IMG/VR virus record: IMGVR_UViG_2531839524_000004
From: a virus
Taxonomy: Duplodnaviria; Heunggongvirae; Uroviricota; Caudoviricetes
Direction: 5' to 3' (one strand)
DNA: 64,000 nucleotides
The notes beneath the pieces are model-generated. The model was not told the DNA's origin. It saw nothing but the letters and a program-made list of their open reading frames with translations, and did no database searches. Numbering within the stretch: position 1 is the first letter of the stretch; each line of letters opens with the position of its first letter. Positions 26,681-29,751 of this stretch are shown here, one piece after another. The translations under genes were made by a program, and so were the position numbers.

Positions 26681-26967
26681 GCAATTTAACTTCTTGGGAA
26701 TGGTGGTTGGCCACCTATTTCTTAGCGGCCGGAGTCGCATTCGCCTTTTACGTAGGTCAGTTAGTCGTAAAACTGTTGCTGATTAAATTTGCTAGTCATA
26801 AACGTATCGATGATGGTCTGTGGCGTCTTGGCACCCTGGTGGAAACTCGCTACGGGCAACTTAAGGAGAACGAAACCATTACTATCCAAGCGAAACGATT
26901 CACTGCCACCATTACAAGAACACCTAGTCGTAGAGTGGCCTTGATCAAAAAAGTCACAACCGAATAA
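26677..26967 (+). CDS. Small membrane protein
   Basis: 96 aa with N-terminal TM 'WWLATYFLAAGVAFAFYVGQLVV'. Confidence 0.45.
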   Translation: MSNLTSWEWWLATYFLAAGVAFAFYVGQLVVKLLLIKFASHKRIDDGLWRLGTLVETRYGQLKENETITIQAKRFTATITRTPSRRVALIKKVTTE

Positions 26968-27202
26968 AAACATATTGATAAGTATTTACTTACTTATCTT
27001 TTGTGTATAAGATGACTTTGTTTTCGTTGAGACGCGACTGTTTGAACTTAAATACAAGTGCAAACGAAGAAGTCTATCTGGCAGTAGCCTAATAAGCCAA
27101 ACACCAGCGAGGTCAGTTTCCAGCCTCGTTACCGAAATGGGACACACTGAGCGAGTGGGATTGCAGAACGCAGGAGGGAACATTCATGTTCCCTCCGATG
27201 AA

Positions 27203-27281
27203 GTAACAGAATGGGCGGTTGGTATATTTTCAACTCCATATGACTCCCGGATTCTTAGCCACTGACCGCCCATTCTGTTAC
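27203..27281 (+). ncRNA. Hairpin element A (17-bp perfect stem, 45-nt loop), member of a three-copy family
   Basis: 'GTAACAGAATGGGCGGT' pairs with 'ACCGCCCATTCTGTTAC'; loop contains 'TTTTCAACTC' and 'GACTCC' shared with element C. Confidence 0.45.
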
Positions 27282-27356
27282 GTCATTTTGTTCAATTATG
27301 TCGTTTATACTGGGTTAAAAAGCGGCGACGTAGCCCGGCTGGTATGGTTAGCCAGC

Positions 27357-27479
27357 ACACAACGTTGAGGCCATTACATTTTTATCAATTCTAAGGTTCT
27401 ATTCACAGAGATACCGGCGAGCGTTGATATGTAACATGTTGGGCAAACATTCAATCGGAGTAGTGGCCTCAACGTTGTG
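27357..27479 (+). ncRNA. Hairpin element B (16-bp perfect stem, ~90-nt loop)
   Basis: 'CACAACGTTGAGGCCA' pairs with 'TGGCCTCAACGTTGTG'; stem closely resembles element C; loop begins 'TTTTTATCAATTC'. Confidence 0.45.
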
Positions 27480-27745
27480 AAGACGGGATTGTTGTGTAGG
27501 TTTAACCACTGTTGCCATTGGTGCCTGTTTTCACAACAAATGATTCCATACATCACATTGTATAAATTACAAAGTAGGTGCTGTCCTCAGAAACATCATC
27601 TACTTAAAGATTTTGCCTTCTACTATTGAGCGAAGTCGAAAGCGTCTGGCACTAACGAAAAGTGCAAGTAGCGGTGCGTTTCCTGGCAGAAACTAAACCG
27701 TCGCGATTGGCACTGTTGAGTAATAAATACTGGCAGTGCTGAATT

Positions 27746-27820
27746 GATGGTGTAGCTCAGCGGTAGAGCAGTTGGCTGTTAACCAACTGGTCGGTGGTTC
27801 GAATCCACCCACCATCGCCA
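27746..27820 (+). tRNA. tRNA-Asn (anticodon GTT)
   Basis: Acceptor stem GATGGTG/CACCATC, anticodon loop CTGTTAA, T-loop GGTTCGAATCC, 3' CCA encoded. Confidence 0.8.
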
Positions 27821-27825
27821 ATTTA

Positions 27826-27912
27826 GGGGAGTTAGTCCGTAGAGGTAGCGGTGTAGACTGTAAATCTACTGTCATGGCGACTCGGGTGGTTCGACTCCAT
27901 CACTCCCCACCA
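27826..27912 (+). tRNA. tRNA-Tyr (anticodon GTA), long variable arm
   Basis: Acceptor GGGGAGT/ACTCCCC, anticodon loop CTGTAAA, T-loop GGTTCGACTCC, encoded CCA; 87 nt. Confidence 0.7.
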
Positions 27913-27916
27913 AATT

Positions 27917-27992
27917 GCCGGTTTAGCTCAGTTGGTAGAGCGCCTGCCTTGTAAGCAGGATGTCAGCGGTTCGAGTCCGTTAACCGGCACCA
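27917..27992 (+). tRNA. tRNA-Thr (anticodon TGT)
   Basis: Acceptor GCCGGTT/AACCGGC, D-arm TAGCTCAGTTGGTAGAGC, anticodon loop CTTGTAA, T-loop GGTTCGAGTCC, encoded CCA. Confidence 0.8.
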
Positions 27993-28209
27993 ACACAACA
28001 GGAAAGAGCATTGAAACCCGCCGAGACTGCCCTGTTTTAAGCGTAAGTCCGTGCAAACGTCATACAGTGCTCTTTTCGTTGTGGTTGATGCGCAGACTGA
28101 TGCGCGGAAAGAAATGCCCCAGCGACACACGAGGCGAGTTCACACACTGCAATGCAGTCAGTAGCCGGGGTCGCTAAGCCGGAGATCAGTACCGGTAACC
28201 ACAACAATT

Positions 28210-28296
28210 GGAGAGTAGGGAGCATGGTGCTCAAGCGGTCTTGAAAACCGTCCCATTGTGCAAACGATGATGGTTCGATTCCATTACTCTCCGCCA
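28210..28296 (+). tRNA. tRNA-Ser (anticodon TGA), long variable arm (tentative)
   Basis: Acceptor GGAGAGT/ACTCTCC, anticodon loop CTTGAAA, T-loop GGTTCGATTCC, encoded CCA; D-arm is unusual. Confidence 0.55.
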
Positions 28297-28297
28297 G

Positions 28298-28376
28298 ACA
28301 CAGCGTTGAGCGGTTTGGCCTTTTAATCAACTCGATTAAGACTCCGCTAACATAAACCAGACCGCTCAACGCTGTG
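28298..28376 (+). ncRNA. Hairpin element C (16-bp perfect stem, 46-nt loop) abutting the 3' end of tRNA-Ser
   Basis: 'CACAGCGTTGAGCGGT' pairs with 'ACCGCTCAACGCTGTG'; loop contains 'TTTTAATCAACTC' and 'GACTCC'. Confidence 0.45.
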
Positions 28377-28450
28377 ATAGATAATTACGGCAGACGTTCT
28401 TAACCATAGCTTGCTAACATCCTAGCAACACTTTTTTCAGCGCAAAATTC

Positions 28451-28473
28451 AAAGGGGCTTCGGCCCCTTTTTT
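28451..28473. terminator. Bidirectional rho-independent terminator
   Basis: 'AAAGGGGC-TTCG-GCCCCTTTTTT' with an A-tract on the other side; between the tRNA cluster and the convergent minus-strand gene. Confidence 0.65.
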
Positions 28474-28488
28474 GTTGAACAGTGCAAT

Positions 28489-29751
28489 TTACTTTGCATA
28501 GTCGCCCAATTTTAATATTTCGCGCTTATATTCATTAACCATGCTACTGGATTCAGTATAAATTCGATTTAAAAGATTATCGTTATCTTTATTTTCATTT
28601 ATCTTAATTAGTGCTAATTTATATTCATAGTCATCAAATGCCACAATTAAATGGTGGCCTGGGATTATATCTTCGTCACTCTTAAAGTATATATCTTCAA
28701 GTATGTAATCTAGTTGATTAGATTTTCTTTTCTCGATGTAATCTTCAGCCATAGCTATTACATCATTCCTGTCATTTAACCTGTTTTTTTCGGAAGGCAC
28801 ATCTTCGTAATGTTGCACGATTGAACAACCAATAAGGCGTGGGATGTAAACGTCAAAATGAGTAACTCTATCATTCGCGGTTTTAAGTAGTTCCTCAAAG
28901 TAGTTTCTTACATGTAAAGGCAACTTCTCAAAGTAATCATTAATTATAGGAGAACAAGGAGTTTTATAATTCATAAGAACCGACGGTACGAGCTTTGGGT
29001 GTCGAAACATCCAGTCCCTTTTAACGTCCGATGGAACATAATAACTTTTAATGATATTATCAAAATAATTTATCATTCGAGATTTGAATATTTTGTTGAA
29101 TCTAAGGTTTATGAATGTATCCAGATAAGGCATATTTGAATAAGCATCATCAAAAAATATTTCATCATTGAAAAAATCATATTTATTCAATAAACAACAC
29201 AGTTTTTCCGAATTAATATGTTCACAATAATCGATTTTTAATCCAAAGATAGCAATGATCAACTTCATCTGAGGTGGGATTTTAAAAATTAATTGTGACA
29301 CATACGCTCTTTTTTCCTTGAGACATTCCCCATCAATATAAAATGAACCATCCACATACTCAAATATATTAATAATATGCTTCACATACTGTATTACCTC
29401 ATGCTGTCTTACCAATGGATAATATAGTCTATGTAACTCATCGCTGTTTAAATTAATTTTGTGTTTATCGATAATTTGTTTTGCAAGAAGACATAACTCA
29501 TCATGTTGATTTAATAAGGAATCAAACCATTGTTTAAATGCACTCTTTCGCATTTCGAACAATGATTCAGTTGTTAATTGAAGGGCTGAAAAAGCTGCTT
29601 TTGCACTTTTTCTCGCTTCGTAGGCATTCCATGCTGTTGCTATAAAAGCAAATGCTGTAGCCAATGTTCCAACAGTTTGACCATTTAAAACAACCCAATC
29701 CCAAAAAATGACGGTGAGCAGTAGTATAATAATGAAAATTAAAAAAGGCAT
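28489..29751 (-). CDS. Membrane-anchored hypothetical protein encoded in an AT-rich island
   Basis: 420 aa; two N-terminal TM segments then a large soluble domain with no motif I recognise; locus is visibly much more AT-rich than surrounding phage genes. Confidence 0.6.
   Translation of the reverse strand: MPFLIFIIILLLTVIFWDWVVLNGQTVGTLATAFAFIATAWNAYEARKSAKAAFSALQLTTESLFEMRKSAFKQWFDSLLNQHDELCLLAKQIIDKHKINLNSDELHRLYYPLVRQHEVIQYVKHIINIFEYVDGSFYIDGECLKEKRAYVSQLIFKIPPQMKLIIAIFGLKIDYCEHINSEKLCCLLNKYDFFNDEIFFDDAYSNMPYLDTFINLRFNKIFKSRMINYFDNIIKSYYVPSDVKRDWMFRHPKLVPSVLMNYKTPCSPIINDYFEKLPLHVRNYFEELLKTANDRVTHFDVYIPRLIGCSIVQHYEDVPSEKNRLNDRNDVIAMAEDYIEKRKSNQLDYILEDIYFKSDEDIIPGHHLIVAFDDYEYKLALIKINENKDNDNLLNRIYTESSSMVNEYKREILKLGDYAK

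Follow-up and report, generated by a model that had tools for sequence, protein, structure and literature searches.

The locus described here lies between positions 26968 and 28476 of a 64,000-nucleotide (nt) stretch of viral DNA (IMG/VR record IMGVR_UViG_2531839524_000004), hereafter the window, which comes from an SSU5-like phage-plasmid of Escherichia coli. It carries four tRNA genes (Table 1) and, in front of them, a stretch (26968-27745) which had been described, in an original prediction made from the sequence of the window, as free of convincing open reading frames (ORFs) and as part of a region with three related long hairpins (elements A, B and C) and a separate small one. Indeed, only ORFs of at most 65 amino acids (aa) are found in this stretch on either strand, and all four hairpins are present at or adjoining their predicted positions. 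They are not the defining feature of the locus, however: both A and the small hairpin belong, as internal helices, to an RNA of ~340 nt (27020 to ~27358), the defining parts of which lie upstream of them. This RNA, the most conserved non-coding stretch of the locus with 68-80% identity between genera, looks like a derivative of transfer-messenger RNA (tmRNA) that is devoid of a tRNA-like domain and carries an arm directed against host tmRNA.

The tmRNA-like character of this RNA lies in a tag frame without a start codon. Its codons, GCA AAC GAA GAA GTC TAT CTG GCA GTA GCC TAA TAA, specify the peptide ANEEVYLAVA and two stops, while the tag of E. coli tmRNA, ANDENYALAA, is encoded by GCA AAC GAC GAA AAC TAC GCT TTA GCA GCT TAA TAA; relatives of the window have the tags ANEDTYLAVA, ANDNQYLAVA, ANDTQYLAVA, ANEDAYLAVA and ANEDSYLAVA. 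Within codons 6-10, the differences among 58 unique homologues are confined to the third positions 27077, 27080, 27083 and 27089 and are all synonymous; codons 3-5 are variable in sequence, yet constant in length. On comparative grounds, the tag template is thus under selection at the level of the peptide, and its frame is translated, or was so until very recently. An ordinary small ORF does not fit, as no start codon is conserved and the frame is shifted by indels in front of the tag; the +1 frame (xUG CAA ACG ... UGG CAG UAG) was likewise rejected, since it undergoes non-synonymous changes and is destroyed in phage Cba120. The linker in front of the tag also resembles tmRNA, in which A86 and U85 are determinants of the resume codon: position -4 is A in all 58 sequences, and position -5 is a U in 38 of them and a C in the other 20; the same holds in other phage families. 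The triplets 5' of the tag show second-position variation and frame-shifting indels, so the linker is non-coding.

The tag is followed by a series of conserved helices. The H-type pseudoknot directly downstream occurs across phage families in five sequence versions of stem 1 and six of stem 2, all of them paired, and compensatory pairs are found within the SSU5-like sequences as well. Compared with the pseudoknot ring of tmRNA (PK1-PK4), this one pseudoknot 3' of the tag is well supported, and hairpins stand at the other positions. In an alignment of ten SSU5-like lineages with 91 consensus pairs, 15 of the predicted pairs have changed on both sides with pairing kept; these are located in the stem of A (columns 204-206/271-273 and 215-218/259-262), the small hairpin (six pairs), the hairpin at 27143-27160 and the helix at 27107-27129. 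Furthermore, the predicted pairs are G·U in 130 alignment cells and A·C in four, an asymmetry that is expected only if the + strand RNA is the folding strand. At the 3' end, the terminal hairpin is preserved by a double change (GCUGA/UCAGC) in one lineage (L018), and in the most distant lineage conservation stops at ~27358.

At its 5' end, the RNA is complementary to the template region of tmRNA. For this arm, E. coli tmRNA was the target in all tests: GUUUUCGUUG pairs with C95-C104, which encode codons 2-5 of the host tag, and GCGACUGUUU pairs with A82-C91, a segment comprising U85, A86 and the resume codon (G90). RNAduplex predicts -26.3 kcal/mol for the window arm against tmRNA 61-130, compared with -12.9 against its own downstream tag region; over the lineages, the respective ranges are -20 to -29.5 and -11 to -17 kcal/mol. 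In every lineage, the first 24-40 nt are collinear with the reverse complement of tmRNA nt ~66-104, and alignments of ten lineages to the reverse complement of tmRNA 60-108 score 22-38, compared with 13-18 after shuffling (0-6 of 500 shuffles reach the observed score). The same tmRNA segment is addressed by different arm sequences, such as GCGACUGUUU in the window, GCGAUUAUUUUU in plasmid pCP102 and GCGUCUAUUUU in phage Felix O1, and with the GCGACUUUGCGG arm of HK620, VLCpiS13b, P7 and Cba120 the pairing reaches into the 3' strand of pseudoknot 1. The host codons matched by the invariant GUUUUCG (C GAA AAC) are absent from the phage tags, and the -1 triplet of the phage RNA is AGU, ACU or AAU, as opposed to GUC in the host, which argues that the arm is kept complementary to the host RNA and not to its own template. 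As far as alignments can tell, the complementarity of the arm to tmRNA is extended, conserved and beyond chance. In this respect, the RNA resembles trans-acting antisense small RNAs (sRNAs) with 5'-end seeds, which likewise present a conserved, probably single-stranded 5' segment complementary to a specific cellular RNA, but it differs from them in its non-coding target, in its two pairing blocks of ~10 base pairs (bp) and in the template that it carries itself. No Hfq site or terminator of the RNA itself was identified.

Despite these features, the RNA is not a tmRNA in the usual sense. A tRNA-like domain (acceptor stem, T-arm and conserved 3' CCA) was found neither by ARAGORN on the window, with default or relaxed settings, nor by Rfam, with E-values up to 10 on the locus and at the gathering threshold on the window, and both programs returned none on the whole 109.6-kb plasmid NZ_CP103659.1, a 99.9%-identical relative. 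In a manual search for a conserved CCA or acceptor pairing, the candidate ends each failed in at least one lineage; acceptor-like pairings through GCCAAAC-A-CCA (27096-27106), the hairpin 27338-27356 or the stem of B were dismissed because they fail in at least one lineage or offer no conserved CCA. SmpB, the protein partner in the mechanism discussed below, is not among the annotated products, including those of NZ_CP103659.1, or the neighbouring ORFs. The best Rfam scores at the locus are below threshold (tmRNA_permuted, 22.7 bits against 47; beta_tmRNA, 17.3 bits against 84), and such sub-threshold matches of tmRNA families to the tag segment recur in five independent lineages; likewise, ARAGORN recognizes a 'resume consensus' and the tag at relaxed thresholds. 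A canonical or permuted tmRNA was nevertheless rejected, as relaxed ARAGORN joins the tag to spurious tRNA domains within protein genes. The permuted form was also rejected for want of an acceptor piece upstream, where a protein gene and a promoter-like site are located, the RNA itself beginning with GUUUUCG, and a global similarity to E. coli ssrA was dismissed since shared 7-10-mers are at chance level outside the tag. The RNA thus has the tag frame and the resume context of a tmRNA, and neither its defining tRNA-like domain nor a permuted gene. ARAGORN also makes unrelated false 'tmRNAp' calls in phage tRNA clusters, so that no link can be drawn between this element and the 'tmRNA' that genome announcements list for Moogle and Felix O1 (PMC4319497, PMC4392139). 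Two further matches to tmRNA, GUCGUUU (27298-27304; within 27296-27305), complementary to tmRNA 92-98, and GGGCGGUUGG in the 5' arm of A (27213-27222), identical to tmRNA 53-62 in pseudoknot 1, do not exceed chance when taken singly (E 0.09-5.6), but could be remnants of a tmRNA origin.

A comparison with known tmRNA systems puts these features into perspective. With standard tmRNA (SsrA, RF00023), the phage RNA shares a template that starts with GCA AAC GA. and has no start codon, A at -4 and U or C at -5, a 10-codon tag of the form AN(D/E)..(Y/F)...A, stop codons in a helix-5-like hairpin and an H-type pseudoknot beside the template; the setting is also the same, as its hosts are Enterobacterales, whose own tag is ANDENYALAA. 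It differs in the absence of an acceptor stem, T-arm, 3' CCA and G3·U70, in having one pseudoknot only, in a 5' end (GUUUUCG...) that is antisense and not sense to tmRNA, in a tag that ends in LAVA and not in ALAA, in Rfam scores far under the thresholds (11-28 bits against 47) and in being embedded in phage tRNA operons. The two-piece tmRNAs of Alpha- and Betaproteobacteria and cyanobacteria (RF01849-51, RF04321), into whose families the weak Rfam matches fall, demonstrate that message and tRNA-like parts can be joined by base pairing alone, and this is the principle that a hybrid of host and phage RNA would require. There, however, both pieces derive from one precursor, the coding piece has a 5' acceptor strand and the pieces pair through helices P1/P2, whereas the second piece of the phage system would be the intact host tmRNA, paired at its template region. 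Finally, mycobacteriophage DS6A encodes a tmRNA that consists of the tRNA-like domain only, and a similar molecule inhibits host tmRNA (PMC4131195; PMC11915505). Both are phage-borne partial tmRNAs, and mirror images of each other: DS6A keeps the tRNA-like domain without a template, the RNA described here the template without a tRNA-like domain.

The RNA is widespread. It is carried by P1/P7, SSU5-like phage-plasmids (including pMT1 of Yersinia pestis), HK620, Felix O1-like, Vi01-like and other enterobacterial phages. Homologues of 26968-27745 are recognizable in 773 plasmid records from Klebsiella, Enterobacter, Salmonella, Citrobacter, Cronobacter and Y. pestis (pMT1), with up to 99.9% identity to ~110-kb E. 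coli plasmids. When 27020-27360 was used in a sensitive search, its first ~95 nt matched 405 phage records, and the Cba120 copy matched at least 646, all of them from phages named for or isolated on Enterobacterales. In nearly all phage copies the element adjoins tRNA genes, and all examined copies begin with GUUUUCG and have the tag frame, the stop codons and the pseudoknot. For instance, it is located between qut and the late terminator in the P22-like HK620 (tag ANEEMYLAVA), within the tRNA cluster in Sf19, Michonne and Felix O1 (ANDNVFLAVA), upstream of tRNA-Arg in Klebsiella phage VLCpiS13b (ANEEVYLAVA) and upstream of tRNA-Asn in the P1-like P7 (ANDDLMMAAA); the Vi01-like Cba120 encodes ANDNTFLAVA as GCT AAT GAT AAC ..., with codons 1 and 2 synonymously changed. 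Tag frame and tag length are retained across the SSU5-like, P22-like, Felix O1-like, Vi01-like and Klebsiella phages, and so is a YLAVA or FLAVA ending. In none of the examined copies could an own tRNA-like domain be detected. The element is annotated in none of the database records and not listed in the tmRNA database papers, and we found no description of it in the literature on tmRNA-like RNAs of phages and plasmids. A scan of genome contigs with a 14-nt pattern gave random matches only.

In two of these phages, we noted further structures close to the element. HK620 has another long hairpin of the type ...GGUAAGAGCAU / AUGUGUUCUUUCC... at 1380-1460, directly 5' of GUUUUCG, and the 5' end of its RNA may come from processing of the late leader transcript rather than from an own promoter. 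Felix O1 (NC_005282.1, 25951-26030) has a tRNA-like gene in which a conserved UAUCUCA replaces the D-arm. The anticodon-like loop is CUUCUAA (UCU), the variable region is long and conserved, and a normal T-arm and CCA are present. The gene occurs in 263 phage records, among them Felix O1-like, rV5-like and jumbo phages as well as a 110-kb Klebsiella phage, and in one record it is annotated as 'tRNA-OTHER'; further copies lie at L235 2001-2090, L236 1501-1584, L237 1501-1583 and L238 1501-1584. Pair 3:70, which as G·U is the alanine identity element, is G·U in four of five copies examined, and pairs 1:72 and 2:71 covary. As the missing partner of the tag-bearing RNA this gene was rejected, since it is unlinked to the element in four other phages and absent from the window.

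Table 1. Features of the locus, with positions counted from the first nucleotide of the window
Feature	Position	Strand	Details
Putative sigma-70 promoter	26985-27013	+	-35 TTTACT (26985-26990), 17-nt spacer, -10 TAAGAT (27008-27013)
5' arm	27020-27044	+	GUUUUCGUUG pairs with tmRNA 95-104, GCGACUGUUU with tmRNA 82-91
A/U-rich linker before the resume codon	27045-27059	+	A at -4 and C/U at -5, like tmRNA A86/U85
tmRNA-type tag frame	27060-27095	+	No start codon; ANEEVYLAVA (27060-27089), then TAA TAA
H-type pseudoknot	27107-27142	+	Stem 1 27107-27112/27124-27129 (GCGAGG/CCUCGU); stem 2 27118-27122/27138-27142 (UUCCA/UGGGA)
Short hairpin	27143-27160	+	CACACU-GAGCG-AGUGGG; C-G to G-C swap in pCP102 lineage (columns 128/140)
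Small hairpin	27173-27196	+	Arms 27173-27183/27186-27196, 11 bp, perfect; internal helix of the RNA
Element A	27197-27287	+	Arms 27198-27219/27265-27286, 22 nt, 95% complementary, 45 nt between; stem 22-26 bp; variable 45-nt inner region with invariant CCCGG; internal domain of the RNA, homologous to C
Conserved 3' segment	27288-27358	+	UUAUGUCGUUUA ... GACGUAGCCCGG; terminal hairpin 27338-27343/27351-27356
Element B	27358-27479	+	Arms 27358-27377/27460-27479, 20 nt, 95% complementary, 82 nt between; 20-bp stem beginning CACAACGUUGAG, encloses a three-way junction; adjoins end of the conserved RNA
Hairpin D	27474-27537	+	Arms 27474-27487/27524-27537 (GUUGUGAAGACGGG / CCUGUUUUCACAAC)
tRNA-Asn	27746-27820	+	ARAGORN, Rfam
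tRNA-Tyr	27826-27912	+	ARAGORN, Rfam
tRNA-Thr	27917-27992	+	ARAGORN, Rfam
Fourth long hairpin	27994-28083	+	CACAACAGGAAAGAGCAUUG ... CAGUGCUCUUUUCGUUGUG; begins 2 nt past CCA of tRNA-Thr
Leader hairpin 5' of tRNA-Ser	28179-28209	+	CCGGAGAUCAGUACCGG, then ACCACAACAAUUG; same leader in P7, VLCpiS13b and HK620
tRNA-Ser (UGA)	28210-28296	+	ARAGORN
Element C	28299-28376	+	Arms 28299-28318/28357-28376, 20 nt, 95% complementary, 38 nt between; 20-bp stem beginning CACAGCGUUGAGC; conserved AAGACUCCGC in loop; 3 nt past CCA of tRNA-Ser
Intrinsic terminator	28451-28476	+	AAAGGGGCUUCGGCCCCUUU and U run; first + strand terminator 3' of the putative promoter

An inverted-repeat scan of the full window (arms of at least 17 nt within 200 nt) returned A, B and C as the sole repeats at 95% complementarity, the remaining four pairs reaching 76-82%. 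Their stems, predicted as perfect, are somewhat longer than the proposed 16-17 bp, namely 20-22 nt at 95%; the small hairpin, predicted with 10 bp, has 11. Against 200 dinucleotide shuffles, the folding z-scores are -8.7 for A, -6.7 for B, -9.9 for C and -5.2 for the small hairpin, with no shuffle folding equally well, and -4.9 for the fourth long hairpin, which, like hairpin D, had not been part of the original prediction. The proposal that A, B and C are homologous and not coincidentally similar holds for A and C, which match over the inner stem and loop (alignment score 33, compared with 14.9 ± 2.5 for shuffles; reached by 0 of 400), and for B and C, which match over the first ~40 nt (28, compared with 15.6 ± 2.7; 1 of 400), but A and B by themselves do not align significantly. 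The matches among the three include the loop motifs UUUUxAUCAAyUC and GACUCC, and A is presumably a paralogue of C located inside the RNA, the same module having been recruited there.

Consistent with a role at the RNA level, the stems are conserved with compensatory changes in related phage-plasmids, so that the refuting condition attached to the original prediction, a lack of stem conservation in related genomes, does not apply. The stem of B reads GAGGCC/GGCCUC in the window, GAGACC/GGUCUC in Klebsiella and GAGAAC/GUUCUC in P7, that of C GCGUUGAGC/GCUCAACGC in the window and GCGCUGAAC/GUUCAGCGC in Enterobacter, and the fourth hairpin covaries between lineages too, while the loops diverge. 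Hairpin D, which occurs in compensatory versions in SSU5 (GUGAAAGCAGG/CCUGGUUUCAC) and Klebsiella, overlaps with its 5' arm the 3' arm of B, so that the two pairings are mutually alternative. No Rfam family matches A, B or C. Of the roles originally considered for the hairpins, a stable small RNA and a tRNA processing signal are both still reasonable, given the non-coding RNA region beside the tRNAs; a degenerate tRNA-derived element is not borne out, as its basis is a T-loop-like 9-mer in the loop of A that is absent from A in the SSU5, Klebsiella and Enterobacter relatives. We also rejected an interpretation as attC sites (GTTGAGC / GCTCAAC), which have the inverse core RYYYAAC at the 5' end and the core GTTRRRY at the 3' end: in C, the order is reversed, with GTTGAGC in the 5' arm, and no integron integrase adjoins. 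Likewise, miniature inverted-repeat transposable elements (MITEs) or repetitive extragenic palindromic (REP) elements do not fit, as the window contains local copies only and no target-site duplications are visible in the flanks. Among 5,426 E. coli genomes, hairpin B occurs in 211 places, all of them plasmid-borne and none chromosomal.

B, C and the fourth hairpin have a distinct position in common, as each begins 0-3 nt past a mature 3' end, namely that of the terminal hairpin of the RNA, of tRNA-Ser and of tRNA-Thr, respectively. Together with their homologues, they have perfect stems of 18-25 bp, enough to provide the roughly two helical turns of uninterrupted double-stranded RNA for RNase III, and conserved termini, CACA(A/G)C...G(U/C)UGUG. 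In Klebsiella and Cronobacter plasmids, homologues are located 3' of tRNA-Asn; in P7 they come after tRNA-Thr and tRNA-Ser, and in HK620, VLCpiS13b and P7 after the core of tag, pseudoknot and hairpin. Judging from this arrangement, they are probably spacers that are cut by a double-strand-specific endonuclease of the RNase III type. They would compare to the RNase III stems of the rRNA operon and the T7 early mRNA, in which long double-stranded stems likewise separate the functional RNAs of a polycistronic transcript, and the locus as such to the stable RNAs co-transcribed with the T4 tRNAs, which are extra stable RNAs beside phage tRNAs; in contrast to these, no counterpart is known for the termini CACA(A/G)CG...CG(U/C)UGUG, and no Rfam model fits. 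The hairpins may also have a part in recombination: module boundaries between phage families coincide with hairpin repeats, and so does a deletion in phage Cyrano, which has no tRNA-Tyr and is devoid of the entire spacer between tRNA-Thr and tRNA-Ser (window 28007-28197), with CACAAC repeats (27994-27999 and 28199-28204) at the edges of the spacer deletion. The CACAAC motif is common to the leader CCACCACAAC that precedes tRNAs and the starts of the hairpins 3' of tRNAs.

Upstream, conservation sets in exactly at GUUUUCG, 7 nt past the promoter-like TTTACT-17 nt-TAAGAT, and transcription would start near G27020. In other lineages, the 17-nt spacing is kept and the -10 element is TATGAT or TATAGT; Sf19, for example, has a strong promoter, TTGACA-17-TATAGT, at the same distance from GTTTTCG, between the preceding tRNA and the RNA. 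A palindrome, ATAAGTA-TTTACT-TACTTAT (26978-26997), overlaps the putative -35 element, and in the pCP102 lineage both of its halves change jointly (ATAGGTA ... TACCTAC), a pattern that would suit either an operator or a hairpin in the RNA. The palindrome may bind a repressor that controls the RNA.

The tRNA genes that usually accompany the RNA are not a prerequisite for it. In the pCP102 lineage, no tRNA is nearby and an ORF replaces B directly after ...GCCAGCACA, and in pMT1 the caf1 operon follows B; the presence of the RNA core without adjoining tRNAs in both cases argues that the RNA is independent of them. In pCP102 (NZ_CP104015.1), the unannotated ORF of ~66 aa at 1826-2026 (MQDVDELKQAAATLL...) has a ribosome-binding-like GGGA upstream, and homology to the window restarts past it at AAATGATTCCATACATC (window 27540-27556). 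In pMT1 (NC_004835.1; locus 1463-2007 and 2019-2924), homology ends with hairpin B (window ~27481), and caf1R, the regulator of the F1 capsule, begins 12 nt past it. The caf1 locus hence occupies the position of the tRNA cluster of other phage-plasmids, with the tmRNA-like RNA retained and caf1R directly after B.

As for the wider neighbourhood, window 26900-28500 is 97-98% identical to the Escherichia phages CMS-2020a and Cyrano. A replication module with a DNA ligase gene and several small ORFs is located 5' of the locus, and 3' of it, on the opposite strand, a 420-aa ORF is followed by glutaredoxin and integrase genes. Leaders of the type found before tRNA-Ser precede tRNA-Ser in P7 and tRNA-Arg in VLCpiS13b, and occur tRNA-free in HK620. 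The tRNA-Ser (UGA) itself scores higher with the tRNA-Sec model of Rfam (44.8 bits; threshold 47) than with the general tRNA model, and its anticodon arm (GCGGUCUUGAAAACCGU) resembles that of the D-armless gene of Felix O1. The related plasmid NZ_CP103659.1 has metG (methionyl-tRNA synthetase) and apbC at 77755-81046, apparently on a captured chromosomal segment, as well as a cspG gene with a cspA-type thermoregulator leader.

As a whole, the locus is best explained as one non-coding RNA operon on the + strand that combines tRNAs, a tmRNA-derived RNA with a docking arm and spacer hairpins, a reading to which we give about an even chance of being correct. A precursor of ~1.45 kb, transcribed from the putative promoter to the terminator, would yield four tRNAs and the ~340-nt RNA, with cleavage of the spacer hairpins separating the units and permitting their 3' trimming. 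Across its carriers, the RNA would likewise usually share a transcript with phage tRNAs and be set free by long spacer hairpins. Tentatively, and with somewhat less than even confidence, we further propose that the RNA docks on host alanyl-tmRNA-SmpB, masks the host template and offers a surrogate (Y/F)LAVA template in place of the ClpXP degron YALAA. To this end, the 5' arm would anneal to the single-stranded tmRNA segment between pseudoknot 1 and helix 5 and thereby mask the resume signal and the first codons of the host, which would position the phage resume codon ~16 nt from the duplex, compared with a host linker of 11 nt. During rescue by host Ala-tmRNA-SmpB, ribosomes would in this way be switched to the phage template and add AN(D/E)xx(Y/F)LAVA instead of ANDENYALAA. 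As ClpX reads the C-terminal LAA and SspB reads AANDENY, proteins tagged with ...LAVA would presumably be handled differently from those tagged with ...ALAA.

Several observations weigh against this picture. Energy-based shuffle tests of the arm are weak in Sf19, pCP102 and Cba120 (p 0.17-0.39), and although the arm comes out best when windows are moved along the RNA, its z-score is only -1.9. Due to the shared ancestry of the family, the matches of GUUUUCG and GCGAC count as few independent observations. Salmonella tmRNA presumably has one mismatch to the arm, to which Salmonella phages show no visible adaptation. A consensus promoter scan makes no call at 26985-27013, and an RNA-seq catalogue of Y. 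pestis sRNAs contains none at the pMT1 locus despite the homologous segment there; the two intergenic pMT1 sRNAs that it lists, sR082 and sR083, map to other coordinates. Furthermore, the cleavage of B and C by RNase III is something that we purely infer, and the ribosome would have to load a template held to tmRNA by base pairing alone.

Other explanations account for some of these features, and their respective strengths differ. The RNA could be a pure antisense inhibitor, the arm of which blocks or destabilizes host tmRNA, for instance as an RNase III substrate, with the tag as an untranslated relic or decoy and the hairpins serving stabilization or processing only. The complementarity to tmRNA 81-104 would suffice for this, no tRNA-like domain is present, and the inhibitory molecule similar to the tmRNA of DS6A (PMC4131195) is a precedent of sorts. 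Inhibition of this kind fits the arm, but not the coding signature of the tag, with its exclusively synonymous changes in codons 6-10, the fixed length of codons 3-5 and stops kept in all families, and a relic would not be expected to persist across Ackermannviridae, Ounavirinae, P22-like, P1-like and SSU5-like elements; overall, it strikes us as unlikely. Conversely, the RNA could be a complete tmRNA of a non-canonical kind, which is self-sufficient with SmpB and has a cryptic chargeable domain either in cis, in the loop of A or the 3' hairpin after processing, or in trans, through a second RNA of phage or host. In the E. coli lineage, the loop of A does contain UUCAACUCC and ACUCCCG, identical to the T-arm of E. 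coli tmRNA, GCUGG/CCAGC, the stem of the 3' hairpin, is similar to the T-stem of tmRNA (GCGGG/CCCGC), and the D-armless gene of Felix O1 (G3·U70, A73, CCA) is located just 3' of the element. However, the T-loop-like 9-mer is missing from A in the SSU5, Klebsiella and pCP102 lineages, no CCA is conserved 3' of the tag (in one lineage, the candidate GCCA at 27351-27354 reads GUCA), the 5' end offers no acceptor pairing, and relaxed ARAGORN finds nothing but the resume signal and the tag. HK620, moreover, has no tRNA-like gene at all, and the Felix-type gene is unlinked in the four other phages. We consider a self-sufficient tmRNA of this kind distinctly improbable.

The remaining alternatives concern the hairpins and the transcript more than the tag. 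As DNA palindromes, MITE-like or located at the junctions of cassettes through which phages exchange tRNA modules, the hairpins could be mobile or recombinogenic and have no role at the RNA level. The breakpoints of homology between SSU5-like, P1-like and other phages do fall at hairpins, the Cyrano deletion is edged by their CACAAC repeats, hairpins of the same types occur in unrelated phage genomes, and A, B and C are paralogous. Yet the copies are confined to these RNA operons, and B to plasmids, no target-site duplications are evident, stems covary while loops diverge, and the preponderance of G·U over A·C points to selection on the + strand RNA and not on DNA cruciforms, which leaves this idea very little room. 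Least probable of all, in our view, is a cis-acting leader or attenuator of the tRNA operon, in which the B and D pairings, alternatives through the shared GUUGUG, would control whether transcription continues into the tRNAs, with the RNA as a long leader at the 5' end. Such a device would be in keeping with the overlap of the 3' arm of B and the 5' arm of D, with the covariation of both helices and with the position of the region between the putative promoter and the tRNAs, but neither B nor D is followed by a U-tract, the RNA core exists without downstream tRNAs in the pCP102 lineage and pMT1, and the tag frame and the arm would be left unexplained.

If the proposed exchange of templates takes place, the RNA would be the first natural example of a tag template that host tmRNA receives in trans and the first way in which a phage acts against the template of trans-translation, and its confirmation would establish a new kind of system as well as a simple small-RNA design for redirecting tmRNA tagging. 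It would also assign a function to a conserved, unannotated region of ~170-340 nt in at least 646 phage and 773 plasmid records, the carriers of which include model or medically relevant elements such as the P1-like P7, HK620, Felix O1, Vi01, SSU5 and pMT1 of Y. pestis. For annotation, an RNA that has a tag frame of the tmRNA type but no tRNA-like domain falls outside current definitions of tmRNA, and the long hairpins define a recurrent spacer module in phage tRNA operons. Finally, the proposed mechanism suggests a reason why this RNA travels with phage tRNA clusters: it may be part of a wider take-over of translation by the phage.

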